Of a stretch of 44,375 nt of DNA, positions 11,885-38,800 are shown in pieces. Source of the stretch: Candidatus Berkelbacteria bacterium CG_4_9_14_3_um_filter_39_23 (lineage in GTDB: Bacteria > Patescibacteriota > UBA1384 > GWA2-35-9 > CG2-30-39-44). The first letter of the stretch is position 1. The number at the start of each line of letters is the position of its first letter. Position numbers and translations under genes: made by a program. The DNA lies in assembly GCA_002789815.1 (NCBI GenBank), contig PFTZ01000046.1:1-44375 (forward strand), given 5' to 3'. The notes under the pieces are model-generated. The model made no database searches. It saw nothing but the letters and a program-made list of their open reading frames with translations, and was not told the origin of the DNA.

Positions 11885-12778
11885 ATGCCACTTATTTTGA
11901 TTTTTGATGGTAATTCGATTATGCATCGGGCGTATCACGCCATCCCACCGCTCACTTCGCCGACTGGAGAGTTAGTCAATTCAGTCTACGGGTTTTTCAG
12001 CATCTGGCTGGCGGCAGTTAAACGATTTCAGCCTGATTCCACAGCAGTGGCTTTTGATACCAAGGGTCCGACTTTTCGCGATAAATTATTTCAAGAATAT
12101 AAAGCTAAAAGGGTTAAGCCACCAGATAATTTTTATCAGCAAATACCAATCATCAAGCAATTATTGAAAGATATAGAGGTCCCAATGCTGGAAAAAAATG
12201 GCTTTGAGGCAGATGATTTGATCGGGACACTGGCAAAAAAATTAGCGCAGGGCGACTGGCAAATTATTATTGTCACCGGCGATCAAGACGTTTTTCAGCT
12301 AATAGATAGTAAAATAAGAGTTTTTTACCCTTCCAAAGGTTTGGGTAATGGCGATATTTTTGGCGAGCAAGAGGTGTTCAATAAATTTGGTTTTATGCCA
12401 GAGCGTATGGTGGATTTTAAAGCGCTAGCCGGCGATCCGTCAGACAATATTCCCGGTGTAGCCGGGATTGGAAAAAAAACCGCTCAAACATTGGTTTGTC
12501 GCTATGCCAAGCTTGATACGATTTACCAAAATATAGCTAATTTATCAAGTCGTACCCAAACTTTATTGTCTGCTGGTAAAAGCCAAGCTGAATTGTCGCG
12601 CCAGCTGGCTCAAATAGACACCAACGCGCCGATCGTTTTTTCCCAAGAAGATAGTAGATTAAAGAACTTTAATCAAGAAAAAGTCGAGCAAGAGTTTATC
12701 AAATTGGGTTTTAAGAGCTTGGTCAGCCGTTTGCCCAAAAGCGAGAGAAAAAATTTCGAGCAACAAGCGCTACTATGA
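11885..12778 (+). CDS. Stand-alone 5'-3' exonuclease / flap endonuclease (Pol I N-terminal domain homologue, no polymerase domain)
   Basis: About 297 aa with 'GFEADDLIGTLA' and the H3TH motif 'DNIPGVAGIGKKTA'. The ORF ends without Klenow-type domains. Confidence 0.85.
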   Translation: MPLILIFDGNSIMHRAYHAIPPLTSPTGELVNSVYGFFSIWLAAVKRFQPDSTAVAFDTKGPTFRDKLFQEYKAKRVKPPDNFYQQIPIIKQLLKDIEVPMLEKNGFEADDLIGTLAKKLAQGDWQIIIVTGDQDVFQLIDSKIRVFYPSKGLGNGDIFGEQEVFNKFGFMPERMVDFKALAGDPSDNIPGVAGIGKKTAQTLVCRYAKLDTIYQNIANLSSRTQTLLSAGKSQAELSRQLAQIDTNAPIVFSQEDSRLKNFNQEKVEQEFIKLGFKSLVSRLPKSERKNFEQQALL

Positions 12779-13710
12779 AAAATTTAATTTTTATCTATGG
12801 AGACGATACATTTCGCGCGGTTGAGTATGTGAAATTTTTAAAAGCCAAATTTTGTGAGAAAAATAAAGGTTTGTTTAATCTCACGGAATATGATTTAGAG
12901 GATAAAAATGATTTTAATGCAGTGATGGTTAATATATCCACCATACCGTTTTTAGCCACCAATAGATTGATAGTTATCAAACACGCTCTCAAAGCTAAAG
13001 ATGCGCCGGTTGAGCAATTTACTCGAACCATTAAAAACTCCCAAAGCACTATCGTGGTTTTTTTTGAGCGCGGGTTTCCTGATAAACGAACGAAATTTTA
13101 TAAATATCTCGCCCAAAACGCAGTGAAAAAAGAATTCAAAGAATTAGCTCCCTGGCAACAAAAAGAATGGATTAAGCGACAATTTGCTAAAGAGGGGAAA
13201 ACGATAGATCAAGAGGCGTTAGAATATTTAGTGAGGATAAAACAAGGCAAAATCAGCAAGATTTTGCCTGAAATAAAAAAATTGATTTTTGTTAGTCAGC
13301 CAACTATCTCTCTTATTATAATAAAAAAATTAGTGGCTCCGTCATACGAAGATAAACTTTATGAAATTTACGATTCGTTTTTATCTGAAAATTGTGCCAG
13401 TCATATTTTGAAAAAGATTGACCATATCAAAATCAATCAAAGCGAGTTTTTTATTTGGGGGACAATAGTTAATTTATTCAGAAATCTTTTGCTGATTGCC
13501 AACGAGTCTAATAAAAATCCTTTTATTCTGCAAAAAAAATTAGGCATCAGTTATTTTTTAGCGCAGAAAGCCTTTTTGCTGAAAAAAGATTTTACCCAGT
13601 TAAAAAAGTTTTATCAAATGCTATTTGACTATGATGTTAAAGTAAAAACTGGTAAAATAGAATTAAAGTTAGCGCTTGATTTGACCGCTTGTAAATTTTG
13701 CGAACTTTAA
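12775..13710 (+). CDS. holA: Probable DNA polymerase III delta subunit
   Basis: 311 aa. N-terminal 'IFIYGDDTFRAVEY' and the overall length fit HolA. There is a 4-nt overlap with the upstream exonuclease gene, and the gene sits in the replisome block. The assignment rests on weak motif memory. Confidence 0.5.
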   Translation: MKNLIFIYGDDTFRAVEYVKFLKAKFCEKNKGLFNLTEYDLEDKNDFNAVMVNISTIPFLATNRLIVIKHALKAKDAPVEQFTRTIKNSQSTIVVFFERGFPDKRTKFYKYLAQNAVKKEFKELAPWQQKEWIKRQFAKEGKTIDQEALEYLVRIKQGKISKILPEIKKLIFVSQPTISLIIIKKLVAPSYEDKLYEIYDSFLSENCASHILKKIDHIKINQSEFFIWGTIVNLFRNLLLIANESNKNPFILQKKLGISYFLAQKAFLLKKDFTQLKKFYQMLFDYDVKVKTGKIELKLALDLTACKFCEL

Positions 13711-23597: not shown

Positions 23598-23790
23598 TGC
23601 AGTAAAAATGACATTAGACTCATTACGAAATAATTTTTCGTAGCGAAATTAAATAATTTTGAGCGAAAACAATAAAGAGTGAGGAAAGCGTAACAGGGTT
23701 ACGCTACGAGCTCTGAATTGTTTTTTAGCCAAAATTTGTTAATTGCAGTAGAAAAGATTATTTCGTAATGAGTCTAATATGAGGCGAGCT
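23598..23790 (+). repeat. ~180-nt extended imperfect hairpin in the 16S leader
   Basis: Perfect 22-nt arms 23612-23633 (attagactcattacgaaataat) and 23755-23776. The apex hairpin 23686-23704 (agcgtaa/ttacgct) is centred at the same axis (about 23695). Imperfect pairing lies between. Confidence 0.8.
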
Positions 23791-23795
23791 TTATA

Positions 23796-23808
23796 CGAAC
23801 TTTAACAA
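23796..23808 (+). promoter_or_regulatory. boxA-like antitermination element (16S leader)
   Basis: 'gaactttaacaag' contains CTTTAACAA, the core of the E. coli rrn boxA (TGCTCTTTAACAA). It is preceded by 'aggcgag' at 23781-23787. Confidence 0.6.
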
Positions 23809-24020
23809 GTGGTATGTTTGTACCACATCAAGATTTAAATACGCCAATATTCAAAATTCCGTAAGTTTGGAATTTGTATCTTGAAATTTAAAATTTTTCC
23901 GTCATCAGGCGGAACTTATATCTTTATGTGGTTGTAATACGCGCCAAATTTGTTTTTTATAACAAATTAGAGTTTTTTACATTTAACTCTGTTTTGAGCA
24001 AAAAAATAGAGATCAAATTT

Positions 24021-25484
<1,464 letters not shown>

Positions 25485-25581
25485 AGGGAGAATTTTAATC
25501 CCAACATAAAGTTGTTGGGAAGGTCGGAATCTCGCAAGAGATTTATTACTGCGTCGTATTACAACCACATTAGGATATAAC

Positions 25582-25606
25582 AAAAACCGCCGATAAGGCG
25601 GTTTTT
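25582..25606. terminator. Bidirectional rho-independent terminator after 16S
   Basis: aaaaaccgcc-gataa-ggcggttttt has an A-tract on one side and a T-tract on the other. It can therefore also terminate the convergent minus-strand ORF 25672-25884. Confidence 0.75.
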
Positions 25607-25671
25607 GAATTTTCAATTTCCAATAATCAATTTTCAAAATGGCAATGTAAAATTAAAAATAAGGGGCAATT

Positions 25672-25884
25672 TCAAGATCTTTGTTTTGCCCAGTTGACGA
25701 TGGTTAATGTTAGCAAAACCACTAAAAAAATTATCAGATATAGAACGACTGAGCCCCAAGCAGTGGAGTACAAAAATTGTTTCTCGCCTTTTACAAGCTC
25801 GTCAAACTGGTTGATGTAATAATAATACCGCACAAAAGGCAAGAGAACGAAACTGGCAATTATACTGGTTAAAATTGTTTTCAT
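25672..25884 (-). CDS. Hypothetical small membrane protein (70 aa, 2 TM)
   Basis: ORF with two hydrophobic segments. I recognise no family. Confidence 0.3.
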   Translation of the reverse strand: MKTILTSIIASFVLLPFVRYYYYINQFDELVKGEKQFLYSTAWGSVVLYLIIFLVVLLTLTIVNWAKQRS

Positions 25885-26087
25885 AATAAAATTATCTGAC
25901 CTCCGAAATCCGATATCTGGTATCTGAACCTTGGTGGTGTGTTTTGAATTCTGCTCGTGCGGGCAAAAAGACCCTTCTCCGTAAAACTACAGACGGTTAA
26001 AAGGGGGTTGGAGGGAAGAAATTTTTGCTCGCCCTCGCTTTTCCGTCGCCAAATTTCGTGCCAGTGAAACTGGCGCGCCGCCTAAAT

Positions 26088-26621
26088 CTATTTTACCGTA
26101 TTAAGCAATTCGTTATTATAATCTCGCATTGTATCTTTATTCGTCGGTTTATACAAAATATTTTCTTTGTATTTTAAATAAACTTCGCTATCGGAATGGT
26201 CGGTTAAAGTTATATCATCTTTTACAACTTCCAAAACAACATTTCTATTTTTATTTTGAGTGATTTTTGCATGGCTGAAAGCGTCAATATAAACCATATT
26301 TTCCCATTTGTCTAACATTTTGAAATGATGAATGTTTTCTGACCACGCAAGCGGGACAACATGATGAAGCTCAAAACCAAGGGTTTTTACGACCGTTTGT
26401 TTTACAAAATACTGATATTTTTCGTTTAACGACCTGTCCAACCTCGTTGTTGTCTCGCTAAAACTATTTTGCCCCTCTTTTAATACTAATTGTTCGCCTC
26501 GCACTTCAAAATATACTGTCTGATTTAAAAGATAATATACTTGGACGATTTTGTTGTGCCAGTTATGAAAATCTCTTTTACTAGGTTTTGATCCAGAAAA
26601 ATTTTTTGGTTTTAATTCCAC
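26088..26621 (-). CDS. HNH (beta-beta-alpha-Me) nuclease domain protein; C-terminal part of a stop-interrupted putative restriction endonuclease
   Basis: Has 'FELHHVVPLAWSEN' ... 'NMVYIDAFSHAKI' (His-His...Asn...His pattern). GTG start. It is in the same frame as ORF 26625-27314, separated by TAA plus one codon. Confidence 0.7.
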   Translation of the reverse strand: MELKPKNFSGSKPSKRDFHNWHNKIVQVYYLLNQTVYFEVRGEQLVLKEGQNSFSETTTRLDRSLNEKYQYFVKQTVVKTLGFELHHVVPLAWSENIHHFKMLDKWENMVYIDAFSHAKITQNKNRNVVLEVVKDDITLTDHSDSEVYLKYKENILYKPTNKDTMRDYNNELLNTVK

Positions 26622-26624
26622 TTT

Positions 26625-27314
26625 TTATATTTCTATAACAGATCTTCTTTGTGTTGGAGTTAAATTTCTGTATTCCTTGATAAGTTCAACTGCTTTATCC
26701 GTATTGATATTAAAACTAGATTCTGTGCCAATGGCAGAAACAAAAAACATATACTCATAAATACTGATTTTATCTATATCGTATTCTTTATCTCTTAAAA
26801 TATCTAAAATAATATCAATGTATCCGCCGAGCAAACTATCTATTCCTTTAGAAAAGATAAAATATTTGTCCAGAATAGTTTTTGCCTTGATTAACTTCAA
26901 GCCCTGATTACTTATTGAAACATATTTAACATTTTGCCTAGAAAAAGAATCCGTTGGTTCTTTTTTCTTGTCATATCGTTCAATCAATCCCATTCTGTGA
27001 AGATCAACAAACAAATTTTTTCGCATTGCGTCTTGAGTGCCTATACCTGCTTTTTGTTTAGCTTCATTACAAAATTGAGCATATAAAAACTCTTCGGAAT
27101 AATTTTCTGGTCTCTTGGAAATGTCGGTCGTCCGAATTGTCATCAAATTTTGATTCGGGGCGTATTTATCCAGCAATATTAAAATATCAATGATTTGCGT
27201 CATCACATAACGATTATGTTCCGAAGAAGGAGAGCCACGATACTTCTCGTTTCTTGTTCTAGAATCAATAAATTCTAGAGCTTTATTTCCTGAATTTATA
27301 TTATTTATTGCCAT
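26625..27314 (-). CDS. Unknown 229-aa protein, probable DNA-recognition part of the restriction enzyme
   Basis: Overlaps the upstream methyltransferase gene by 14 nt. I see no nuclease motif. 'LFVDLHRMGLIERYDKK' looks like a winged-helix segment (weak). Confidence 0.55.
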   Translation of the reverse strand: MAINNINSGNKALEFIDSRTRNEKYRGSPSSEHNRYVMTQIIDILILLDKYAPNQNLMTIRTTDISKRPENYSEEFLYAQFCNEAKQKAGIGTQDAMRKNLFVDLHRMGLIERYDKKKEPTDSFSRQNVKYVSISNQGLKLIKAKTILDKYFIFSKGIDSLLGGYIDIILDILRDKEYDIDKISIYEYMFFVSAIGTESSFNINTDKAVELIKEYRNLTPTQRRSVIEI

Positions 27315-28083
27315 ATTTAATCAAGTTTCTTTTTGCTAATTTAACATAGTTTTTATTATTGTCGGAACAAATAAAATTTCTTTTTAATTTTTTTGCGGCT
27401 ACAGCAGTTATGCCGCTTCCGACAAAACAATCTAAAACAAGATCGCCGACATTTGAACTTGCTTTTATAATTCTTTCCACTAATTCTAGTGGTTTAGGTG
27501 TAATATGAGACATTTTAGGAGTTTTGCCGTTGATTTTATTTTTATGCCTCTCGCTTGTGATATGCCATACTTCACCGCAAAGCCTGCCTTTCGGATTAGG
27601 AAACCACCTTTTGCCGTCTTTTAAAATCCCTTTTATCTTTGCGTGTTCAATTCTATCAGTTGATTCATAGGGTACACGAACATCGTCATAATTAAAAATA
27701 TGATTTTCGCCCTTGGTAAAAAACAAAATTGATTCTTGCCCGTTGCTGAATTTTTGTTTTGCCCCGCCCAATCCGTCTCTTTTATCCCAAGTTATCCAAT
27801 TTTGAAAAAATAACCCTTTCGTCACTAAATAAAAAAGAATAAAAGCCGAATTGTAGGGGGTGTTAAAAATATACAAACTGCCGTTTGATTTTAATTTAGG
27901 GATTAAAGCGTCAATCCAGTGAAATGTAAAATCAAAAAAATCTTTTTCGCTCTCAAAACTATCCCATTTTGCCTTATTCAAATTATATGGCGGATCAATA
28001 ACGGCGAGATTTATTGATTTATCATCAATTTTATTTAAAAACTCAAGGCAATCTAAATTGTAAATTTCGTTTATTTTTTTCAT
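27301..28083 (-). CDS. Beta-class N6-adenine/N4-cytosine DNA methyltransferase (DPPY type)
   Basis: Motif IV 'LAVIDPPYNLN' is N-terminal and motif I 'VLDCFVGSGIT' is C-terminal, which is the beta permutation of the N6_N4_Mtase family. Confidence 0.9.
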   Translation of the reverse strand: MKKINEIYNLDCLEFLNKIDDKSINLAVIDPPYNLNKAKWDSFESEKDFFDFTFHWIDALIPKLKSNGSLYIFNTPYNSAFILFYLVTKGLFFQNWITWDKRDGLGGAKQKFSNGQESILFFTKGENHIFNYDDVRVPYESTDRIEHAKIKGILKDGKRWFPNPKGRLCGEVWHITSERHKNKINGKTPKMSHITPKPLELVERIIKASSNVGDLVLDCFVGSGITAVAAKKLKRNFICSDNNKNYVKLAKRNLIKYGNK

Positions 28084-28086
28084 AAC

Positions 28087-28932
28087 TTAAAATAAAGATT
28101 TGAGTTTTAAATTCATTACTCTTTCGTAACTTTTTGATATTTCATAACCGACATAATTTCTTTTTAATTCTTTGGCAATTTTTAATGTTGTGCCAGAACC
28201 AGCAAAGGGGTCCAAAACCGTATCGCCGACATATGTAAATAATCTAACACAACGCCTAACGATTTCTTCGGGCATTATTGCCGAATGCTCGCCAAAGGCC
28301 AAATCGCCTTTCCCCGGAATTGGTATGTTCCAAATTTGTTTTGTAAATTCTACCCATTCTTTTTCAGTCAATTTGCTTTTTTCTTTTATATCTTTTGGCA
28401 AATTATTTTCGGAAGGTCCATCTTTTACATAAACAGTAATAAATTCAATTGTATTTTGAGCATAAAAATTTCTTGGGTAAGGATAACTACCAAACATCAA
28501 TTTTTTACTCGGATTTGTTCTGTTCCAAATAAATACATCAAGCAGGAATAGTCCCGTGCCGTTCAATATTGAGTGTTCAATATCGCTGTTAATGTCAAAT
28601 ATGTGGCGATTAAAATGTGTGTCTAAAACCTTTTTGAACATTGGCATTAGTGGAGTGTTGACGACTAATTTTCCATTTGGCTTTAATACTCTTTCGCATT
28701 CTTTCCAAACCTGCAACATTTCATTAACATATTTTTTATAATCCGCAATGTCGCCAATTTGTCCACGAATTTTTTCTGACCTTTTATCTTTTTGATAACC
28801 GTCAAGGGAATAATCTTTTATATTGAAATATGGCGGACTAGTAACGACCAATTGGACAGAATTGTCTGGCAATTCTGTCATTTTTCTTGCGTCTTTAAAA
28901 AATAATTTGTTTAAATAATCCATAAAATCCAT
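28087..28932 (-). CDS. Beta-class N4-cytosine/N6-adenine DNA methyltransferase (SPPY type)
   Basis: Motif IV 'LVVTSPPYFN' is N-terminal and motif I 'VLDPFAGSGTT' is C-terminal. SPPY is more often seen in m4C enzymes. Confidence 0.9.
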   Translation of the reverse strand: MDFMDYLNKLFFKDARKMTELPDNSVQLVVTSPPYFNIKDYSLDGYQKDKRSEKIRGQIGDIADYKKYVNEMLQVWKECERVLKPNGKLVVNTPLMPMFKKVLDTHFNRHIFDINSDIEHSILNGTGLFLLDVFIWNRTNPSKKLMFGSYPYPRNFYAQNTIEFITVYVKDGPSENNLPKDIKEKSKLTEKEWVEFTKQIWNIPIPGKGDLAFGEHSAIMPEEIVRRCVRLFTYVGDTVLDPFAGSGTTLKIAKELKRNYVGYEISKSYERVMNLKLKSLF

Positions 28933-29039
28933 TTTATTAAATTATCAACGCTAACTTCAAGGGCTTTTGCAAGTTTATTAAGTGTGTCTAATGTTGGATT
29001 TTGATTTTTGCCATCTTCAATTTTTCGGAAGTCAGATTT
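28913..29039 (-). pseudogene. N-terminally truncated Cro/C1 (XRE)-type HTH remnant (controller-protein-like)
   Basis: The minus-strand frame reads 'KSDFRKIEDGKNQNPTLDTLNKLAKALEVSVDNLIKWILWII*'. This matches the C-terminal half of HTH_3 domains (..isriErGkrnPsldtLlklakaLgvsvdeL). There is no start codon or N-terminal helices. The frame begins at the tRNA-Ile 3' end and overlaps the M gene ATG. Confidence 0.5.
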
Positions 29040-29116
29040 TGGTGGGCGCGGATGGACTCGGACCATCGACCTCTTCATTATCAGTGAAGTGCTCTAACCA
29101 ACTGAGCTACGCGCCC
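29040..29116 (-). tRNA. tRNA-Ile (anticodon GAT), CCA encoded, non-canonical T-loop
   Basis: The reverse complement folds as GGGCGCG-TA-GCTC-AGTTGGTTA-GAGC-A-CTTCA-CTGATAA-TGAAG-AGGTC-GATGG-TCCGAGT-CCATC-CGCGCCC-A-CCA. The T-loop is TCCGAGT, with C where the near-universal U55 is expected. Confidence 0.85.
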
Positions 29117-29180
29117 ATTATAATCTCAAATTGTGCTTGTTGTTATTTTCTACTCGTCTTTTTATTCCCGTATCTTCGCC

Positions 29181-29300
29181 TGTCATTCCCGTGAAAACGG
29201 GAATCCAGACAGGGCTGTATCCCCAATCCGAAGCGCTTCGCTTTCGGTTGAGGATGACAAGGGGGTGGAATGATATTTGCGTAAGTTGCGCAATATTCTA
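29181..29300. repeat. Dispersed GATGAC-module repeat, copy 2
   Basis: Hairpin 'cattcccgtgaaaacgggaatc' (inverted gtcat module), then the core 29219-29265, which is identical to 54-100. The tail 'aatgatatttgcgtaagttgcgcaat' is related to 129-160. Confidence 0.8.
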
Positions 29301-29414
29301 AAAAATCAAGAATCTAGCATCTAAGTATAATTCTAGCAATTTTGGGGAAAAAATGCAATAATATGGTCCAGAGGATAGAAACCAGATATCAGTTTTCCGA
29401 TAAAATTTGAAGCA

Positions 29415-29894
29415 ATGCTTTTAACTACCCATATTTTAATCGGGGGAGCGATCGGACAAGCGGTGGGCAATGCGCCACTTGGTTTTGCATTAGGCGCAGT
29501 ATCTCATTTTGCGCTGGACGCTATTCCGCATTTTGATCCGGGAATATGGAGTGATGTCACCAAGGAAAGTGGCGAAAATATTTGGGACAAAAAAATATGG
29601 GCTTTTGTCGCGGTGGATTTATTAGCAACACTCGGATTACTAATCGTGTTGCTCCCGCAAAGTTTATCGCTTCCATTTATCGCTGGCGCTTTAGGTGGCG
29701 CGTCAGTTGATTTGATTGACAATGTGCCATTTTGGCAAAGGAAAATTCACCAAACAAGAATTGGCAAACAGATTGGCAAATTTCACAATTCACTTCATTT
29801 TGTCAAAAAGGAAATCCTGAGAAAAAATGCCATGGCGCTTCTTGTCGTCCAAGTTGTAATTATCGGATTGATTTTTTGGCTGATTGAGCTATAA
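29415..29894 (+). CDS. Membrane protein, possibly YdjM/DUF457-like membrane-bound hydrolase
   Basis: 159 aa, 4-5 TM. N-terminal 'MLLTTHILIGGAIG' and 'HFALDAIPHFD' His-rich motifs resemble that family (from memory). No clear SD. Confidence 0.4.
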   Translation: MLLTTHILIGGAIGQAVGNAPLGFALGAVSHFALDAIPHFDPGIWSDVTKESGENIWDKKIWAFVAVDLLATLGLLIVLLPQSLSLPFIAGALGGASVDLIDNVPFWQRKIHQTRIGKQIGKFHNSLHFVKKEILRKNAMALLVVQVVIIGLIFWLIEL

Positions 29895-29903
29895 TAATTC
29901 CAA

Positions 29904-30107
29904 ATGTTCACAAGAATTTTAATTTTTATTGCTTCTTTGGTTTTGGGCTACCTCGGTCTTCGGTATAATTATTGGGTGGTTAAAACCGTTGGCAAAAGTC
30001 AGTGGGTTGAAAATAAATTCGGCGCTGGTATGACATTTGCGGTTTACCAGCTAATGGCTTTGATTATCATTATACTTGGTTTTGCCCACTTGATTGGGGC
30101 TATTTGA
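29904..30107 (+). CDS. Hypothetical small membrane protein (67 aa, 2 TM)
   Basis: ORF with two hydrophobic helices, starting 10 nt after the previous stop. Confidence 0.3.
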   Translation: MFTRILIFIASLVLGYLGLRYNYWVVKTVGKSQWVENKFGAGMTFAVYQLMALIIIILGFAHLIGAI

Positions 30108-30123
30108 AATAATATTTTATCAT

Positions 30124-30195
30124 GGGCTCGTAGTTCAATGGTAGAACGCTTCATTTGCAATGAAGAGGTTGGGGGTTCGATTCCTCTCGGGTCCA
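30124..30195 (+). tRNA. tRNA-Cys (anticodon GCA), no encoded CCA
   Basis: Folds as GGGCTCG-TA-GTTC-AATGGTA-GAAC-G-CTTCA-TTTGCAA-TGAAG-AGGTT-GGGGG-TTCGATT-CCTCT-CGGGTCC-A. Confidence 0.9.
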
Positions 30196-30208
30196 AAAAT
30201 ATACATCC

Positions 30209-30237
30209 TTGACAAAAGCATCAGGGATTTTTAAAAT
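30209..30237 (+). promoter_or_regulatory. Sigma70-like promoter with ~120-nt structured leader
   Basis: TTGACA (30209-30214), a 17-nt spacer, then TAAAAT (30232-30237). The leader contains an imperfect hairpin (ggagttgttgttgag / ctaacaacagttcc) whose loop carries the 17-mer 30274-30290, which is shared with 23593-23609. Confidence 0.55.
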
Positions 30238-30364
30238 AGAAATAGGAGTTGTTGTTGAGCGCGTTTTTGTAGCAATTTGCAGTAAAAATGGCACCTAACA
30301 ACAGTTCCAAAAAGTAGTTGGTCGAGCTATTTATTGTTTTTAAATAATAAAAGGAAAAATAATT

Positions 30365-31057
30365 ATGGATTCATTATCAAATTGGACAACCTCAATTCAA
30401 GATGCTTTACAAGTAATCGTCACCAGAGTGGTTGATTTTATTCCTAATATCTTTGGCGCAACCTTAATTCTAATTTTAGGTTGGGTGCTGGCAGCGCTCC
30501 TTGAGTGGGCTGTGGAAAATATCTTGCGCGCAACTGGTCTGCAAACAGTATTTGAAAGAGCCAAGATAGAGGATATTATTAAAAAAGCTGATACCAAGAA
30601 AGATACATCGGGCGTTATTGGTTCAGTAGTAAAATGGATTGTTATTCTGGTAGCGGTGATGGCAGCGGCTGACACATTGCAAATGCCACAGATTGCCGGC
30701 TTTATCAATGATATTTTAGGCTATGTACCAAGTGTTGTTGGCGCAGCAGTTACTTTGGTTGTGGGAGTAATTTTCGCTCATTTTATGGCGAATGTTATTA
30801 AAGGGGCGGTGACTGCCGCTCAACTAAATTTTGCAGATTTGGCAGCTTCAGCTACCAAATATGCGATTTTGGTTTTTACGATATTAGCAGCGCTGTCTCA
30901 AATGGGCATTGCGACTGTTTTTTTACAGACCTTATTCACTGGGTTTGTTGCAATGATTGCTATTGCTGGCGGATTAGCTTTTGGTCTTGGCGGACAAGCG
31001 TTCGCTAAAGATTCTCTAGAGAAGTTTAAAAAAGAAGTCGAAATCCACAGCAAATAG
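30365..31057 (+). CDS. Membrane protein with repeated 'conserved TM helix' segments (mechanosensitive-channel-associated type)
   Basis: 230 aa, about 5 TM, internally repeated. RBS 'aaaggaaaaataattatg'. The family call is from memory of TM_helix repeats. Confidence 0.5.
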   Translation: MDSLSNWTTSIQDALQVIVTRVVDFIPNIFGATLILILGWVLAALLEWAVENILRATGLQTVFERAKIEDIIKKADTKKDTSGVIGSVVKWIVILVAVMAAADTLQMPQIAGFINDILGYVPSVVGAAVTLVVGVIFAHFMANVIKGAVTAAQLNFADLAASATKYAILVFTILAALSQMGIATVFLQTLFTGFVAMIAIAGGLAFGLGGQAFAKDSLEKFKKEVEIHSK

Positions 31058-31153
31058 TTTGCTATTCAGCTTCCTCACAAGGAGGGGAGAAATTAAGGGC
31101 TATAAAGCTAGCAATTTTTGTATTACAAAATAGAGTATGTCTCGCAAGGTTAT

Positions 31154-31189
31154 ACCAGTAGCAAGAAGGTTTGCTTGGTAATTTTTTTC
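31154..31189 (+). terminator. Rho-independent terminator of the 30365-31057 gene
   Basis: Stem accag(ta)gcaa / ttgcttggt with a 2-nt bulge, then 'aattttttt'. Confidence 0.55.
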
Positions 31190-31193
31190 TTAC

Positions 31194-31223
31194 TTGACAA
31201 GCAATTGTATAATTTGATACAAT
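31194..31223 (+). promoter_or_regulatory. Strong sigma70-like promoter upstream of 23S
   Basis: TTGACA (31194-31199), an 18-nt spacer, then TACAAT (31218-31223). Confidence 0.6.
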
Positions 31224-31315
31224 ACATTTAATGGTAGAGAGAAAAGTAGAAGTAAAAATCAGAAAGGGGGTAAGCGCTTGATAGCAGTTTGAGTTTCGTT
31301 TTTCAGATTGTCATC

Positions 31316-31337
31316 AACCGCTTAATGCGGTTTTTTT
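31316..31337 (+). terminator. Intrinsic-terminator-like hairpin inside the 23S leader (also a reverse GATGAC module)
   Basis: aaccgc-ttaat-gcggtt followed by a 7-T run. On the minus strand it reads hairpin + 'ttgatgacaa', i.e. a member of the dispersed repeat family. Confidence 0.5.
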
Positions 31338-31372
31338 CTCGTCAATTTGTGTATTATTCAGGCGAGGTAAAA

Positions 31373-31385
31373 GTACTTTAACAAT
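31373..31385 (+). promoter_or_regulatory. boxA-like antitermination element (23S leader)
   Basis: 'gtactttaacaat' carries the same CTTTAACAA core as 23799-23807. It is preceded by 'aggcgag' at 31360-31366. Confidence 0.6.
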
Positions 31386-31591
31386 ACGGTTTGATTGTCA
31401 ACAACAATCAAAGTAAGTGTAATAAGAGATCACCAAAAGTGTATGGTGGATGCCTTGGCAAAAAACACCGATGAAGGACGTAGTAGCCTGCGATAAGCTT
31501 CGGGTAGCTGGCAAACAAGCTTTGATCCGAAGATGTCCGAATAGGGCAACCTAACTGCGTAAACCGCAGTTGATCGTGCTTCGCACCCAAT

Positions 31592-31726
31592 CTCAAAATT
31601 TAAACCTTCCCGAAAGCTATCGCTAAAGGGCAGGCAAATCTCAAAGTGACCCCGAACAAATTACTTCGCAATTTTACGGGGTAGACAATGTAAAATTTTA
31701 AATTTTGATTTTGAGTGCGTAGTACG
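31592..31726 (+). other. 23S intervening sequence A (domain I, ~135 nt hairpin insertion)
   Basis: It lies between 'ccgaatagggcaacc...' and 'ggtacccgctgaactgaaacatc', where E. coli has about 40 nt. The base pairs cccaatc (31585-31591) with gattggg (31727-31733). The lower stem is made of 'tctcaaaatttaaa' / 'tttaaattttgattttgag'. Confidence 0.6.
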
Positions 31727-31779
31727 ATTGGGTACCCGCTGAACTGAAACATCTTAGTAAGCGGAGGAAAATAAAACAA

Positions 31780-31876
31780 TAATCCCGTTTTCGGGATAGT
31801 GTTTCGCGTCTCGACTTCAAAATGTTAAATTTCAATTTTTGAGATTTGAGATTTGAATTTTGAGATTGCGAAGCAT
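31780..31876 (+). other. 23S intervening sequence B (~97 nt)
   Basis: It interrupts the stretch equivalent to E. coli 'GAGGAAAAGAAAUCAACCGAGAUUCCCCCAGUAGCGGCGAGCGAA', which reads here as 'gaggaaaataaaacaa[insert]tgtgattccttaagtagcggcgagcgaa'. It contains 'tttgagatttgagatttgaattttgagatt'. Confidence 0.6.
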
Positions 31877-32903
31877 TGTGATTCCTTAAGTAGCGGCGAG
31901 CGAAAGAGGAAAAGTCTAGTATTAACGACGATTGAAATTATTAGCAGAATAAACCTGGAAAGGATAACCAAAGCGGGTGATAGTCCCGTAAGCGAAAATT
32001 GTTTCAATTTAAGTTAATCCGATCCCTGATTTTTATTGGGGTGGCAAGTACTGTCAGACACGTGAAATCTGGCAGGAAGATGGGTGGATCATTATCCAAG
32101 ACTAAATATGTTTTTTGACCGATAGTGAACTAGTACCGCGAGGGAAAGGTGAAAAGTACCCCTAGCCGGGGAGTGAAATAGTACCTGAAACCATACACTG
32201 ACAAGGAGTCGGAGCGCGTTTTGCTTAGGCGAAGCGTGTCACGGCGTGCCTTTTGCAGAATGAGCCAACGAGTTGTCATATTTTGCGAGCTCAAGCTTTT
32301 TTAAGGCTGAGGCGTAGGGAAACCGAGTGTTAATAGCGCGATTAGTAAAATGTGGCAGACCCGAAACCGGGTGATCTATCCATGGTCAGGCTGAACTTCG
32401 CCGAAAGGCGGTAGGGAGGGCCGAACACACCAGCGTTGCAAAACTGGGTGATGAATTGTGGATAGTGGTAAAATGCCTATCGAACCCGGAGATAGCTGGT
32501 TCTCCTCGAAATATATTTAGGTATAGCGTTCCACTGCAACCCTGCAGGTAGAGCACTGGTTCGTGTACGGCGGAGAAATTCGTTGGCACGAGTCAAACTC
32601 CGAATAGCAGGACTCAAAGAGTGGAGCAGTCAGTACGTGAGGGCTAAGCTTCATGGTACAAAAGGGAAACAGCCCAGATCGCAATCTAAGGTCCCAAAAT
32701 AAGATTTAAGTGGGAAAGGAAGTAGTCTACCACAGACAAATAGGAGGTTGGCTTAGAAGCAGCCATCCTTTAAAGAAAGCGTAACAGCTCACTATTCGAT
32801 TTTTCTCAACCCGCCTTTGGCGGGAAGAGAGGTAGATTGCGCCGAAAATTCAACGGGGCTAAAATCTTTACCGAAGATGCGGATGCCATTGCTACGCATT
32901 GGA

Positions 32904-33173
32904 AGCATCAAATAACAACATATAAATAACAAACAAATATCTAATTACACGACTTACGTAAATATCTTTCCGCGTTGTCATTGCAAGGCTCCGCCAGCTG
33001 GCGGAAACAAAGTAATCTGGCAAAATTATATGAGATTGCCACGCCTGTTGGCTCGCAACGACATAATACGTAAGTCGTGTAATTACCAAAATTCAAAATG
33101 ACTGAAGCATATAAATATTTTTTACTTTAGAATTTAGGATTTGTTTGGTTATTGTTTCTTGAAATTTGGAATT
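32904..33173 (+). other. 23S intervening sequence in helix 45 (~270 nt)
   Basis: The extended stem pairs gccattgctacgcattgga (32885-32903) with tccattgcatagcagtggc (33174-33192), where E. coli has a short helix-45 hairpin. Inside is a perfect 19-nt inverted repeat, 32942-32960 / 33067-33085, plus gtcat/gatgac-type modules. A smaller ~31-nt expansion is also present at about 32797-32830. Confidence 0.65.
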
Positions 33174-33822
33174 TCCATTGCATAGCAGTGGCGTGGTAGA
33201 GGAGCGTTCTTTAAGCAGCGAAGCTTCACTGTGAAGTGGGGTGGAGTTTAAAGAAGTGCGAATGTTGGCATGAGTAACGAATTAGCCCGGCGAGAAACCG
33301 GGCCACCAAAAGTCTAAGGTTTCCCCCGCAACGATAATCGACGGGGGGTTAGGCGGGAGCTAAGCTTGCGAAAGCGATGCACAGCAGGTTGATATTCCTG
33401 CCCTGCCATATTTTTAAGATATTATGACGCATTTTTAAGCTATTTTATTGCTATGACTATGTAATAAAATGGGGAGAGAGTGACTAGAAAAGTAATATCT
33501 TGCTAAATTTATGGCATCCGTACCGCAAACCGACGCAGGTAGACGGGTTGAGAATACTAAGGTGATCGAGCAAACTCTCGTTAAGGAACTCGGCAAAAAA
33601 ACGTCCGTAACTTCGGAATAAGGACTGCCCGCCTCTTCGGCGGGCCGCAGCGAACGTTTTCCGGGCGACTGTTTATCAAAAACATAGCTCCATGCTAACC
33701 CGCAAGGGGATGTATATGGGGTGATGCCTGCCCAGTGCTGGAAGGTCACGAGGATTAGTGATACCGTGCTACGCACGGTTGAGCTTTGAATCTAAGCCCC
33801 AGTGAACGGCAGCGGTAACTAT

Positions 33823-34519
33823 TAAATAACGGTTAGTAGTTATAAAATCTGGCCAAATGCTGGAAACTCTTGTCAGGTTATTGGTAGGATTAGAAAATTA
33901 TCTAAACCTAACAATCCAATAAATAGAGACAATCAGCAGGAAAGATTTCATAAAAGGAGAAAAATGGATAATAATATTCAAAAAATTCCCGAGAGAATCG
34001 GATGGTATTTTGCGGAATTTGTTGATGGTGAAGGTAGTTTTAATGTTTCACTTAGAAAAAAGCCTGATTATACAATGCATTGGCAAATATGCCCAAGCTT
34101 TAATATTTCACAGAAAAACAGAGCAATTCTTGCCTTATTTAAACATCATTTAAATGTGGGTATATTAAGCGGAGAGCAGATGGATTGTATGCATACGAAT
34201 AGTGAATCACAAAATGCTAAGTGGTATCATTATCCCATTTTTTAATAAATTTAATTTTTTATCTCCAAATCAAAAAAGAAACTTTTCAATATTTAAGGAA
34301 ATAATTAGGTTAATGGACACAGGGATTCATCTGAGTGAAGAAGGATTCAATAAGATTATTGACCCCAGAGAAATTCTAAACAAAGGTAAAGGTAGAAAAC
34401 GAAAATATGAAAAGGATAATTTAAATTATGAAAAATCCCCAGAGACTATACGCCAGAATCGCCAATAAGGCGATATGATATAGTCCGATCTTTATGGAGA
34501 CATAAAGCTAACATAAATG
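33823..34519 (+). mobile_element. Group I intron in 23S helix 69 (insertion after the U equivalent to E. coli ~U1917)
   Basis: The exons 'cggtaactat|' and '|aaccgttctatggtagcgaaattcc' join to match E. coli 'CGUAACUAU|AACGGUCCUAAGGUAGCGAAAUUCC'. The 5' exon ends in U and the intron ends in G (34519). The core element 'gatatagtcc' (34477-34486) resembles the conserved P7/P3 strand of group I introns. A terminal hairpin lies at 34490-34507. Confidence 0.8.
33964..34468 (+). pseudogene. Single-motif LAGLIDADG homing endonuclease gene, frameshifted
   Basis: SD 'aaaggaga' precedes the ATG at 33964. The LAGLIDADG motif is 'FAEFVDGEGSF'. The family-like sequence continues in three different frames: '..ALFKHHLNVG' (frame 1), 'YIKRRADGLYAYE' (frame 3, 34161-34199), then 'IVNHKMLSGIIIPFFNKFNFLS...' (frame 2, to 34468). 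Confidence 0.8.
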
Positions 34520-34933
34520 AACCGTTCTATGGTAGCGAAATTCCTTGGCGTGTAAGTTACGTCCCGCACGAATGGCATAACGGTCTGGAAACTGTCTCAA
34601 CGAGAGGCTCGGTGAAATTACACTGCCGGTAAAGATGCCGGTTACCCGCGGCAAGACGAAAAGACCCCGTGGAGCTTCACTACAGCTTGGCATTGGTTTG
34701 CTTTGCTAAATGTTTAGTCATAGGTGGGAGGGTGTGTGTAGCACTTGTGCTATACGTATTCAACAATGAAAGACCACCCTTGTAGCGTAGCAAATCTAAC
34801 CCTCGTTAAAACGAGGAGACAGTGTTTGGCAGGTAGTTTATCTGGGGCGGATGACTCCTAAAGAGTAACGGAGTCGCTCAAAGGTTGGCTAGTCCCGTAT
34901 GGAAATCGGGATGATAGTGTAAAGGCAAATGCC

Positions 34934-34964
<31 letters not shown>

Positions 34965-35014
34965 CTGCGAAAGCAGGACTTAGTGATCCTCTATCTTTGA
35001 ATGACAGAGATAGA

Positions 35015-35051
<37 letters not shown>

Positions 35052-35612
35052 GATCGCGCCCAATAGCTCACATAGACGGCGCGGTTTGGCACCTCGATGT
35101 CGGCTCAACGCATCCTGGGGGTGGAGCAGCTCCCAAGGGTTTGGCTGTTCGCCAATTAAAGCGTTACGCGAGCTGGGTTCAGAACGTCGCAAGACAGTTC
35201 GGTCTTAATCTGCCGTGGGCGATCAAAACTTGAGGGAAATTCTCCTTAGTACGAGAGGACCAGGAGGAACAAGCCTCTGGTGTACCAGTTGTGCCATCAG
35301 GCGCATCGCTGGGTAGCTATGCTTGTATGGATAACCGCTGAAAGCATATAAGCGGGAAGCCATGCCCAAGATTAGGTTTTGTTTGAGATCCCCCAAAGAC
35401 GATGGGGTTGATAGGTTAGCGGTCTAAGTCCCGTAAGGGATTCAGCCGTCTGATACTAATCGATCGAAGATTTTTTATTACAACTTTGAATTTTTATAAT
35501 TCAAGGTAAAACTTACTTTGATTTTTGTTGACAATTTCGGCATTTTGATTAAATCGCAAGAAGCGAAATTTTTGTATCTAAGTTTTTGGTTGGTTGCGTA
35601 TAAAAATTTTCT

Positions 35613-35748
35613 TCTGGTGATTTTAGCGAACAGGAAACACCCGTTCCCATTCCGAACACGGCTTCGCCTCTTCGGCGGATAAAAGTTAAGCTGTTTTGCG
35701 CCAATGATAGTTACCTCGCAAGGGGTTGCGAAAGTAGGTCATCGCCAG
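35613..35748 (+). rRNA. rrf: 5S ribosomal RNA with an apparent ~21-nt internal hairpin insertion
   Basis: Helix I pairs tctggtgat with atcgccag(a). It has 'cccgttcccattccgaacacgg' and 'aagttaagc', 'gcgccaatgatagt' and 'gcgaaagtagg'. The length is about 136 nt against about 116-120 nt normally. Confidence 0.85.
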
Positions 35749-35811
35749 TTTTTTTGTACTTCAAAAAGTAGGCTAACCCACAGCGGGTCTATTCTTTTTT
35801 TGCAATAATTT

Positions 35812-35820
35812 TGGTATAAT
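35812..35820 (+). promoter_or_regulatory. Extended -10 promoter (TGgTATAAT) for the large envelope protein gene
   Basis: 'tggtataat' lies 54 nt upstream of the TTG start. There is no good -35. Confidence 0.4.
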
Positions 35821-35873
35821 AAAATTAAGTTGGTTCTCGTTTTGTTTACGCAATCTATAAGGAGGAAATTACT

Positions 35874-38800
35874 TTGGAATACCAATTGAAAGATAATTTT
35901 TCAAAACAGATGCGCTATTTTTTGATAATAGCAATAAGTATTATCACTATTTTTGGATTTAATTTTTTCAAAGTAGCCCAAACAAGCGCGGTAGCCGATG
36001 TTACATTAACTAGTTCTGCTTTTTCAGATTCTGACGCAGATGATACGCATCGGGCTTCTCAGTGGCAAGTGACTACCGCATCGGGCGTCTATACTAGTCC
36101 GACCGTTGATTCTGGCACAGACACGACTAACAAAACAACCTATCTTGTTTCAGCTTCAAATCTAACAGCTTCAACTACTTATTATTGGAGGGTAAGATAT
36201 CAAGATAATCATTTAGCTTGGAGCAATTGGTCAAGCGAAGGCACATTTATTACTGATGCTGATGCTGTGCCTGACACAACGCCTAGTTGCCCCACCAGTA
36301 TCACTGCCACTGCCGGGGATGCGCAAGTAGTTTTGAGTTGGGGGCAACCAGTCAGCAATGATACTGGTTTGTTTTGGATTTATCGGTCAACAGTCAGTGG
36401 AGAAACAGGTAGCCAAATTGGCACTGCCACAATTTCGTCCTATCCAGCTTCTTATACCGACACTTCGCTTACCAATGGCACCACTTATTATTACACGGTT
36501 AACGCAAAAAATTCTGGCACAGGAGAAGAATCGAGCGGATATAATCAAGTTTCTGCTACTCCGGTTGCTACCGCTATAGTAGCTGTGGCAGTCCCAAACT
36601 GTCCAGCTAATTTGAGCTCGCAAGCAGGAGATAAGGCAATCGATTTATCTTGGGACGCGCCGGTTAGTGGCAGCTTGTACACCGGATATAAAATTTATCG
36701 TTCAGTAGTATCAGGAACCCAAGGCAGTGAGGTTGCCAACATTACTGATATTTCAATAAAAATTTACCACGATAGCGGGCTCACTAATGAAACAACCTAT
36801 TATTACACGGTTGTCGCTTACAATAGCTCTGGTGAGGCGGTTTTATGTAGCCAAATTTCTAACACTCCTACTGGTCGACCGAATTGTCCTTCTGGCGCCA
36901 CATTATCAATTTCTGGCACAAGAGCCACACTCAATTGGACTAACGCGACAAATAGCGATTTTAGCCATGTGGTAATTTATCGTTCACAGGCAAGCGGGCA
37001 AACAGGCGATCTGGTCTATACATCTGGCAGTAGCGCAATAAATAGTTTCGCTGAAGATATCAATCCGGCAACCAGATATTATTATACAATTGTATCAGTG
37101 GATACAGATGGGAATACTTCTTCCGGTTGCAATCAGATTTCTACCAGCCAAATTGCTTCTTGCCAAACTGGTTTTACCGCTAAAAAAACAACCAGAGAAA
37201 AAAATTATCTTACTTGGACAGCAGGAAGCCAGATCTATAAAAATCTGTTATATAAAAAGGTGTCAGAGGTTTTCACGCAAATTGCTGTTTTAGATAGCGC
37301 GACAAATTATTTTTTTGATACTGACGGTGGCGCAGCTGATTATGAATTACGAGCACAGTATCAAAATGCCAGTAGTGAAACTACTTGCGGGCAGGCAACA
37401 GTGAGTGAAACTATTGATCCGTTATGTCCCACGCTTCCCGCCCTTACTTTGGCGAAGCCAGTTTTGAATATTGTCGGCGACACAGCGCAGGGGGTAAATG
37501 GTTCGTATTTGGATAATATTCAATTTAAAAGTATTGATTTAGCCTGGAGTGTGCCCGATTTTCCTTTGAAAACAATTTATTTGTCTCGCGATCAGGGGTC
37601 AGTTTGGGTTTTGGATAAAAATTCAACTAGCTACATTGACACTAACCAAGGAGTATCGCCAACTACCTATCATCTTTGGGCGGAATACGATTTAAGCCAA
37701 TATAACAACCCGAGCAATTGTCCAGTGCCGGTGAGTGATGTTGATTTTACTTTTGACCTAAGCAACTTGGGAGGTTTTGATATTTTAAACCCAAGCGATG
37801 GGAGTGTGTATAACCGGGGAGACGATTTGGAGCTGGTGTGGACCCAGCCACCAGTTAATTCACAGGACCTTGTCAAGGGCGACCATTTTGATATTGACAT
37901 TTCAGACGATGGAAATTACCGCAAAGAGTACCGAAATTTGCCATTTTTTAACCCTTTGGAAAATAGTTTTAATCGCACGCCGCCAGCTGATTTTGGATAC
38001 AAAGCCAGCACAGATTTAACTAATCCATTGGTAAAAAATATCTATACACTGGCGAATTGGGAGAGTTTATTACCGTTTGTCGTTGTTGATAAGCAAATCA
38101 CGATTAAGGTAAATTTGGCTGATTCATCAGGCGAAATTTTGCATACAGAGCAAATTGTTTTTACCATTCGCAACCCTTTAATTGTTGCCAGGCAAGCTAA
38201 TTATCCTTTTTCAATTGCCAGCAGTATTGTTACAATTCCTACAATGATATTGATGGTTTTAGCTAATGCGCTCAGCGCCAGCAATTCGGCGGGCTTTATG
38301 CTAATTGATAAAATAATCAATTTTTCCAAATTGTTGCCAACAAAAATGAATTTATTTTTTACCGGCAGCTGGCTTCGTCGGAAGAGAACTTCATGGGGCA
38401 CGATATTGAGCGAGCACAGCAATAAGCCAGTTGGGAAAGCATTAGTTGAATTACACAAAGAGCAATTTGGTAAAGTGGTAAAAACTGCCATAACTGATCC
38501 TGCCGGCAGGTTTTGGTTTCTAATTTCTGAGCCCGGTCAATATTTTATTTCAACTCAAAAAACAGGTTTTCGCCAGTTCGTTAGCCAAAGTTTTAACATC
38601 TTTGATATAAATAAATTACCCATCAATCAAAAAATTTATTTAAAACCAGTTGAGCTGGAAACAAATGTAGCGATGCTTAAATTGCTGGCATTTGTTTTTG
38701 CTTTGGCGAAGGTGTTTGACGCTATTAGAATTCCAGTCCTTGTGCTGGGCTCAATTATGTCAGTTTATAATCTGATCGTTTATCCAGGGTTGACAACATA

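Follow-up and report, generated by a model that had tools for sequence, protein, structure and literature searches.

The window, by which we mean the whole 44,375-nt stretch of a Candidatus Berkelbacteria contig, carries a restriction-modification (R-M) cassette between its 16S and 23S rRNA genes, next to a tRNA gene. The body of the cassette consists of four tightly packed minus-strand open reading frames (ORFs). In order these are M2 (28087-28932, 281 aa), M1 (27301-28083, 260 aa) and two ORFs at 26625-27314 (229 aa) and 26088-26621 (177 aa), and they are joined by a gap of 3 nt, an overlap of 14 nt and a gap of 3 nt. This is exactly the layout given by the first-pass annotation, which counted it as an operon of four genes. 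The single co-linear operon stands, and its genes are three, M2-M1-R, with the ORFs of 229 and 177 aa forming one gene and the truncated remnant of a helix-turn-helix (HTH) gene lying upstream. The features of the cassette, all on the minus strand except the flank, are these.

28926..29024, minus: remnant of a small HTH (controller-type) gene, C-terminal ~32 residues only (Pfam HTH_26 and HTH_3)
28087..28932, minus: M2, beta-class DNA methyltransferase with SPPY motif, 281 aa (278 aa if translation begins with the second ATG, 28923; Pfam, PADLOC, H. suis)
27301..28083, minus: M1, predicted beta-class N6-adenine DNA methyltransferase with DPPY motif, M1.MboII orthologue, 260 aa (PDB 1G60, H. 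suis)
26088..27314, minus: R, MboII/HpyAII-family Type IIS restriction endonuclease gene, 408 codons with an in-frame TAA at codon 230 (single frame, profile and intact alleles)
26625..26627, minus: nonsense codon TAA, which is TTA (Leu230) in intact alleles (comparison with those alleles)
26271..26366, minus: predicted HNH (beta-beta-alpha-Me) catalytic motif, H317, H318, N339 and H348 (conservation and HpyAII spacing)
26001..26087, no strand: conserved 3' flank of the cassette, with hairpins (homology with the Falkowbacteria locus L005 reaches 26001)

The 229-aa and 177-aa ORFs share a frame and are separated only by the TAA at 26625-26627 and one further codon. Both fall in one restriction enzyme profile, PADLOC REase_II PDLC03506 (416 positions). 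The 229-aa ORF covers profile positions 5-229 (E 1e-77), the 177-aa ORF covers 234-413 (E 1e-43), and an intact allele, P0001, covers 5-413 in one piece (E 2e-127). The read-through R as query finds 577 homologues, nearly all of them single chains of 405-420 aa and including intact 408-aa proteins at 99% identity; clustering at 50% identity gives 271 clusters. The 229-aa ORF is therefore not the separate gene without a known motif that it had been taken for, and by frame and profile the two ORFs are the halves of one restriction enzyme, with recognition at the N-terminus and HNH at the C-terminus. UGA encodes glycine in some members of the Candidate Phyla Radiation (CPR). An alternative code of this kind is ruled out as the cause of the interruption, since the interrupting codon is TAA.

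R matches the "type II restriction endonuclease subunit R" of a Helicobacter suis plasmid system, found by tblastn of plasmids, with 34% identity over residues 14-407 (E 3e-71), and the source of one homologue, 75% identical to R, labels it "Type-2 restriction enzyme MboII"; for distant representatives of 416-421 aa a look-up of their clusters yielded no name. Neither the 229-aa nor the 177-aa ORF has a significant match in Pfam or NCBIfam, and a PDB sequence search with the family profile yields no relative of R, which is probably why the identity of R was missed at first. The residues H317, H318, N339 and H348 are invariant in 29 homologues. In HpyAII the HNH motif is H328, H329, N350 and H359, of which H328, H329 and H359 were tested by mutagenesis (PMC7494987), and the spacing of the four residues is identical in R. 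The HpyAII mutagenesis primers encode EKGFELHHIVPLCL and YIDAFNHAKISQT. The primer-encoded peptides GFELHH(I/V)VPL and YIDAF(N/S)HAKI match R locally, which carries GFELHHVVPL and YIDAFSHAKITQ at the HNH motif. Two reviews list MboII within the HNH superfamily (PMC2441816, PMC4081073), while the HpyAII paper (PMC7494987) instead repeats the older claim of a PD-(D/E)XK motif in MboII. From the literature, the conserved residues and the HpyAII spacing, R is assigned to the HNH superfamily, and the sequence evidence favors HNH for the MboII/HpyAII family as a whole. The HNH residues expected in the 177-aa ORF are thus present; the "unrecognised type" of the nuclease falls away, as the ORF belongs to an enzyme of the known MboII/HpyAII kind.

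The two methyltransferases carry SPPY at residue 32 of M2 and DPPY at residue 30 of M1, and both match Pfam N6_N4_Mtase (E 2e-48 for M2 and 9e-60 for M1), so that the SPPY-type and DPPY-type assignments hold. M2 also matches PADLOC MTase_II PDLC03353 (E 3e-89), and its best PDB matches include N4-cytosine methyltransferases. M1 is identical to M.MboIIA, the crystallized M1.MboII (PDB 1G60), at 167 of 249 positions (67%, 410 bits, E 4e-122). Identity to the H. suis proteins is 55% for M1 and 63% for M2. Furmanek-Blaszk and colleagues are reported to have identified N4-methylcytosine (m4C) as the M2.MboII product in 2009. From its SPPY motif and this work, M2 is predicted to make m4C on the TCTTC strand. 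M1.MboII modifies the 3' A of GAAGA (PMC7544214), M2.MboII is a cytosine methyltransferase (PMC3990576), and HpyAII, the Helicobacter pylori isoschizomer of MboII, recognizes GAAGA (PMC7494987). The expectation of a Type IIS-style system that pairs N6-adenine and N4-cytosine-type beta-class methyltransferases with an HNH nuclease is borne out at this level, and MboII, which had been named as an example, is the actual family.

The stop codon in R can be followed across alleles. Two contigs with intact R, L001 and L002, represent the same locus, with 99.87% nucleotide identity to window positions 23706-37314 and no gaps. The window differs from either of them at 17-18 positions, 14 of which lie in 26019-28330. 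Three residues of R are affected, by TTA to TAA (Leu230 to stop), Thr229 to Ile and Lys224 to Arg; the three changes are clustered within 19 nt, and the mismatch at 26626 is the sole transversion among the differences from L001 and L002. The split products recur, the exact 229-aa protein on 46 contigs and the exact 177-aa protein on 40, in several independently assembled metagenome-assembled genomes (MAGs) and at least five GenBank MAG records, while the intact R allele is found on 3 contigs. An intermediate allele, P0284 on locus L017, has the stop without the two neighboring changes. The stop-codon allele is real and dominant. R is not the only gene hit. In L001, where R is intact, a nonsense codon at position 28330 shortens the M2 product to 197 aa, and other members of the protein clusters show altered R N-termini or a shortened M1. 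An R-M system inactivated in different ways within one population is the usual picture. Two observations stand apart from this. The change of Lys224 to Arg (AAA to AGA) creates a GAAGA, the predicted target, within R itself (window 26640-26650), which is probably a coincidence. On L016, from another sample, the sequence matches the window at 99.9% from 28809 onward, and its first 77 nt, unrelated to any compared sequence, interrupt M2; L016:1-77 may reflect a rearrangement, an insertion or the chimeric end of a contig.

The AlphaFold model of the intact allele has a mean predicted local distance difference test score (pLDDT) of 71 and is confident for residues 33-280 and poor for 285-338. The stop falls within a predicted helix (220-233); next come a loop (234-248), another helix (249-263) and a beta-hairpin (269-278), and in the model the region 220-278 looks like one winged-helix unit. 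Because the stop lies inside this unit, the recognition part would be truncated and the enzyme inactive, leaving a restriction-negative, modification-positive (r- m+) state. At the HNH motif the predicted elements are strand, strand and helix (319-321, 340-343 and 345-352), with low pLDDT. In a fold search of the PDB, the model comes closest to the Type IIS-derived nickase Nt.BspD6I and to the recognition domain of BpuJI. These matches are weak (E 6e-3 to 6e-2, template modeling score 0.3-0.4), and they suggest that the recognition part resembles other Type IIS readers rather than a new fold. The recognition part had been called novel; it is covered by PDLC03506 and has hundreds of close full-length homologues, and its weak fold matches are other Type IIS readers, so the novelty does not survive.

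These data very probably describe a mobile M2-M1-R cassette of the MboII/HpyAII type, a Type IIS system with predicted GAAGA specificity, in which R is broken by a stop codon and which is decaying, most likely in the r- m+ state. In such a system M1 would methylate the 3' adenine of GAAGA to N6-methyladenine (m6A), and M2 would place m4C in the complementary TCTTC strand. The intact R, a single chain of ~408 aa, would read GAAGA with its N-terminal part and cut a few bases downstream with its C-terminal HNH domain. The change of TTA to TAA ends R at residue 229, and of the HTH gene only the final ~32 codons are left. What most likely remains of the decaying R-M system is a pair of active methyltransferases with no restriction activity, in a strain that is restriction-negative and modification-positive.

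Several points weigh against this account. We infer the loss of restriction, and a GTG 3 nt past the TAA could still start the HNH half. The GAAGA specificity and the methylated bases are predicted from homology, and R is likened to R.MboII indirectly, through the name given by a source, the profile length and the identity of M1. The HNH models of Pfam and NCBIfam give no match to the C-terminal half with E allowed to rise to 1, and AlphaFold models this half poorly (pLDDT 34-54). Avoidance of GAAGA, considered as a sign of past restriction pressure, is not marked in the window, with 77 sites observed and 88 expected (observed/expected 0.88, rank 166 of 1024 5-mers). At ~99.9% similarity the alleles are too close for a test of relaxed selection.

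The most substantial rival takes the two ORFs at face value as the product of a functional split, a 229-aa subunit that recognizes GAAGA and a 177-aa HNH subunit reinitiated at the GTG, together an active, attenuated or regulated two-chain enzyme. The split allele is dominant across many samples and MAGs, the 3-nt spacing from stop to GTG copies the coupled M2-to-M1 junction, the stop just precedes the predicted loop 234-248, and the downstream ORF is intact in every copy seen. The alleles are less than 1% apart, however, so the intact downstream ORF carries no weight, and the stop lies within helix 220-233 of a winged-helix-like unit that continues to 278, which is no clean domain boundary. 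Full-length representatives of the family are single chains. Short representatives had hinted at a recurrent natural split of the family at residues ~225-236, but the idea finds no support. Of the apparent C-terminal-only representatives, P0236 begins right after a Nextera adapter and P0175 lies on a 1-kb contig where each of the three frames is closed upstream by a stop; the starts that cluster at M189 are a gene-calling effect. The M2 nonsense codon in the sister contig L001 also fits general decay. We regard a functional two-chain enzyme as unlikely. Similarly small is the chance that the stop-codon allele has become a natural split enzyme by translational coupling, or that the recognition fragment acts by itself as a site-specific DNA-binding protein; if true, either would amount to population-level tuning of restriction.

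Far less probable still is the model of the first-pass annotation, in which four genes form a system of a new kind with a novel 229-aa specificity protein and a separate, unrecognised HNH nuclease. It draws on the lack of a significant Pfam or NCBIfam match to either ORF and of a sequence relative in the PDB. The shared frame, the common profile, the single-chain homologues and the intact alleles already refute it. Both ORFs fall in one known restriction enzyme profile, the intact alleles differ from the window by 3 residues, all three components have counterparts in the Helicobacter and Moraxella GAAGA systems, and the best matches of the fold search, weak as they are, are the Type IIS recognition domains of Nt.BspD6I and BpuJI. 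Just as improbable, in our view, is an error of assembly or sequencing behind the stop codon, with R intact and active in the organism. Intact alleles do occur at the same locus in L001 and L002 (99.87% identical), and three changes are packed into 19 nt. An error would nevertheless have to explain the exact split products on 40-46 independently assembled contigs from several samples, including at least five GenBank MAG records, as well as the intermediate stop-only allele P0284 on L017.

The ORF called over the HTH remnant (28911-29078, 55 aa) extends into the tRNA gene, and Pfam HTH_26 and HTH_3 match the remnant at profile positions 27-61 only. It is homologous to the 3' half of a complete 69-aa HTH gene that lies upstream of M2 in two other loci (L006 and L007) and that matches PADLOC Control_protein at E 8e-9. 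The gene is degenerate in L005 too. In the window operon an intact controller gene is absent, and its last ~32 codons abut tRNA-Ile. The junction of the cassette by the tRNA looks like illegitimate recombination that truncated the HTH gene ~20 nt from the tRNA end. Among promoter-like sites in the region the best is at 29146-29117, directly upstream of tRNA-Ile, and the cassette may be read through from the tRNA promoter. At the other end, the hairpin-bearing 3' flank has similar elements in L005 and L006, where they precede the cassette. Shortly after the R stop codon, the differences between the window and L001 and L002 convert the hairpin at 26060-26074 from GCCAGT-GAA-ACTGGC to GCCAAC-AAA-GTTGGT. 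Its stem is kept by compensatory changes between the alleles, and 7 transitions fall within 20 nt at 26064-26083, a cluster that resembles either a short tract of recombination or a structure under selection. Two candidate repeats were rejected. The motif AAGGGGGTTGGAGG, considered as a terminal repeat, is no commoner than chance in the window; what L005 and L006 have in common with the window is the longer flank with its hairpins, and no more. The direct repeat 26115-26132 / 29117-29134 does not mark att sites, since its copies are a conserved stretch of R coding sequence and the -10 region of the tRNA promoter.

The M2-M1-R module recurs in unrelated contexts with its 3-nt gap and 14-nt overlap unchanged, and the homology of the window with these other loci runs from 26001 to ~29024. 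The loci and their nucleotide identity to the window are given below.

L005, 88%: Falkowbacteria genome, with tRNA-Leu/tRNA-Val on one side and housekeeping genes on the other
L006/L007, 78%: after tRNA-Asn
L008, 74%: large Paceibacterota contig, ~4 kb past two tRNA-Thr genes
L010, 81%: within an element that has its serine recombinase at tRNA-Leu and also encodes a relaxase and a type IV secretion system coupling protein

In all four long contexts examined the cassette lies downstream of tRNA genes. Its distribution indicates that it moves between CPR lineages, including within an integrative/conjugative-type element. No relative was found in viral contigs, and phage carriage was set aside.

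No cassette lies between the 16S terminator and tRNA-Ile on L018, a related Berkelbacteria contig that comes from a different aquifer. L018 and the window agree at 99.4% in the 16S part and at 78-89% in the neighboring genes. Past the 16S terminator (window 25610), L018 has 410 unrelated bases, then a tRNA-Ile fragment and then a complete tRNA-Ile, on the minus strand. The segment specific to the window is therefore ~25611-29020. In the cassette-free contig tRNA-Ile is inverted in the same way, so both this inversion and the splitting of the rRNA locus are older than the cassette. The first-pass annotation had remarked on the odd site, inside a split rRNA locus and beside a tRNA. The location is real, with the cassette between 16S (24019-25482) and 23S (31423-35479) and next to tRNA-Ile(GAT); the arrangement was not caused by the island. 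Among the features of a tRNA-targeted integrative island, only the position next to the 3' end of a tRNA fits here. No recombinase or integrase is found among the ORFs between the 16S and 23S genes, and no tRNA-derived direct repeat was found at the far island border. A scan of the genome collection with the neighboring MscS-like protein returned only a 54%-identical locus without rRNA, and an exact-pattern metagenome scan for the left flank gave no match.

The composition of the island agrees with an origin elsewhere. Its genes have a GC content of 0.313-0.326 and a third-position GC content (GC3) of 0.28-0.295, compared with means of 0.403 (standard deviation 0.029) and 0.377 (standard deviation 0.033) for the other 26 protein genes of the window, or z ~ -2.7 to -3.1. 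Their GC3 is below that of all other protein genes in the window, while in GC one host gene, 12775-13710, is also low (0.316). Low GC had been noted before, against "housekeeping" lines of 48-53%; the low value is confirmed, but those lines must be rRNA (16S windows have 0.505-0.515), and the true contrast with protein-coding genes is 32.5% against 40%. The proposed horizontal acquisition is upheld, with GC and GC3 ~3 standard deviations below host genes, the cassette in unrelated contexts and the relative L018 without it.

The surroundings contain the following genes, with RNA genes placed by Rfam and ARAGORN.

24019-25482, plus: 16S rRNA
25672..25884, minus: 70-aa predicted membrane ORF (orf70), downstream of R, within the segment missing from L018
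29040-29116, minus: tRNA-Ile(GAT), a host gene that adjoins the cassette upstream in the same orientation
30123-30196, plus: tRNA-Ala(TGC)
31423-35479, plus: 23S rRNA
35613-35750, plus: 5S rRNA

A terminator-like hairpin (25581-25607) lies 3' of the 16S gene. The 16S-23S gap of 5.9 kb is filled by protein genes on both strands, and 16S and 23S are therefore effectively unlinked. The ORF orf70 (25672-25884) may or may not be part of the island; it has no homologue beside the cassette in the other loci compared. An inverted repeat of 24 nt, 83% complementary, is formed by 25902-25925 and 29377-29400. It contains CCAGATATC and lies 15-40 nt 5' of both divergent small membrane-protein ORFs, orf70 and orf159, and is possibly a shared regulatory site or due to chance. 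Inversion of tRNA-Ile and island through this repeat was considered and rejected, as tRNA-Ile is inverted in L018 too and the repeat is no better than chance would give. An intergenic host repeat relates 29219-29265 to 54-100 (100% identity) and 29244-29278 to 105-139 (91%). It consists of GGATGAC..GGGGG units and small hairpins, and the copies (54-139 and 29219-29278) end near a TATAAT-like box. The 23S gene spans 4057 nt for a model of 2925 positions and so holds ~1.1 kb of insertions. A 93-aa ORF inside it (~33964-34245) has a weak LAGLIDADG_1 match, and 3 of the few strain differences are located there.

L018 shows further peculiarities of its tRNA genes. At L018:4036-4222 the orthologue of the window tRNA-Ala(TGC) (30123-30196) is split in the anticodon loop by a 115-nt insert with a 12-bp terminal inverted repeat, GCCCGCCTGCCA / TGGCGGGCAGGC. 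The insert carries a complete, different tRNA-Ala(TGC) at 4088-4161, so that one tRNA gene is nested in another. It is too short for a group I intron, and a full-text literature search for such anticodon-loop tRNA insertions in the CPR found no papers. In the region L018:2290-2454, the tRNA-Ile fragment is a 3' half starting from the anticodon loop, 20 nt downstream of the complete tRNA-Ile, which itself is identical to that of the window (29040-29116) at 60 of 78 positions, despite the 99.4% identity of the 16S part. This suggests turnover or replacement of tRNA genes at the tRNA-Ile site. Toward the 3' end of its 16S gene, L018 also carries a 204-aa ORF and a group I intron (Rfam RF00028), both absent from the window.

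Among known systems, the closest likeness of the cassette is to MboII of Moraxella bovis (R.MboII, M1.MboII and M2.MboII; GAAGA 8/7), whose combination of an m6A (DPPY) and a cytosine-specific beta-class methyltransferase with one restriction enzyme chain of ~410 aa with C-terminal HNH is also predicted for the cassette. The PADLOC profile lengths, 416 positions for the restriction enzyme and 260 for the methyltransferases, equal the published MboII protein sizes of 416 and 260 aa. The family has been characterized since 1991. The host of MboII is a gammaproteobacterium, whereas the window belongs to a CPR bacterium. Unlike MboII, the window R has a nonsense codon and a remnant HTH gene lies upstream of the operon; its specificity is a prediction, and the sequences have diverged. 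All three proteins are homologous to those of the HpyAII-like H. suis plasmid system (NZ_AP019775.1; R 34%, M1 55%, M2 63%), and the H-H-N-H spacing of HpyAII is identical. In H. suis, R is convergent with the two methyltransferase genes, whereas in the window all three are co-linear and their junctions are coupled. Phase variation is described for HpyAII, which makes switching of R on and off a normal trait of the MboII/HpyAII family; in the window the inactivation is by base substitution and not by a repeat tract. The other HNH Type IIS enzymes MnlI, HphI and Eco31I, and likewise FokI, Nt.BspD6I and BpuJI, share the general plan of an N-terminal sequence-reading module and a C-terminal nuclease that cuts at a distance, but they have no detectable sequence similarity to R and the fold matches are weak; the nuclease domains of Nt.BspD6I, FokI and BpuJI are PD-(D/E)XK, not HNH.

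Judged by its proteins, the window system is a partly decayed member of the known MboII/HpyAII Type IIS family and not of an unrecognised type. Its enzymological weight is small, as the family is known and close homologues are already in public databases. It does document one R-M cassette that circulates among Berkelbacteria, Falkowbacteria, Roizmanbacteria, Gribaldobacteria and Paceibacterota with nucleotide identity up to 88%, and that lands downstream of tRNA genes, here within the gap of an unlinked rRNA locus. It also documents a single groundwater population that holds R-knockout, M2-knockout and all-intact alleles together. If the methyltransferases are active, GAAGA methylation could mark the strain in long-read metagenomes of the aquifer.

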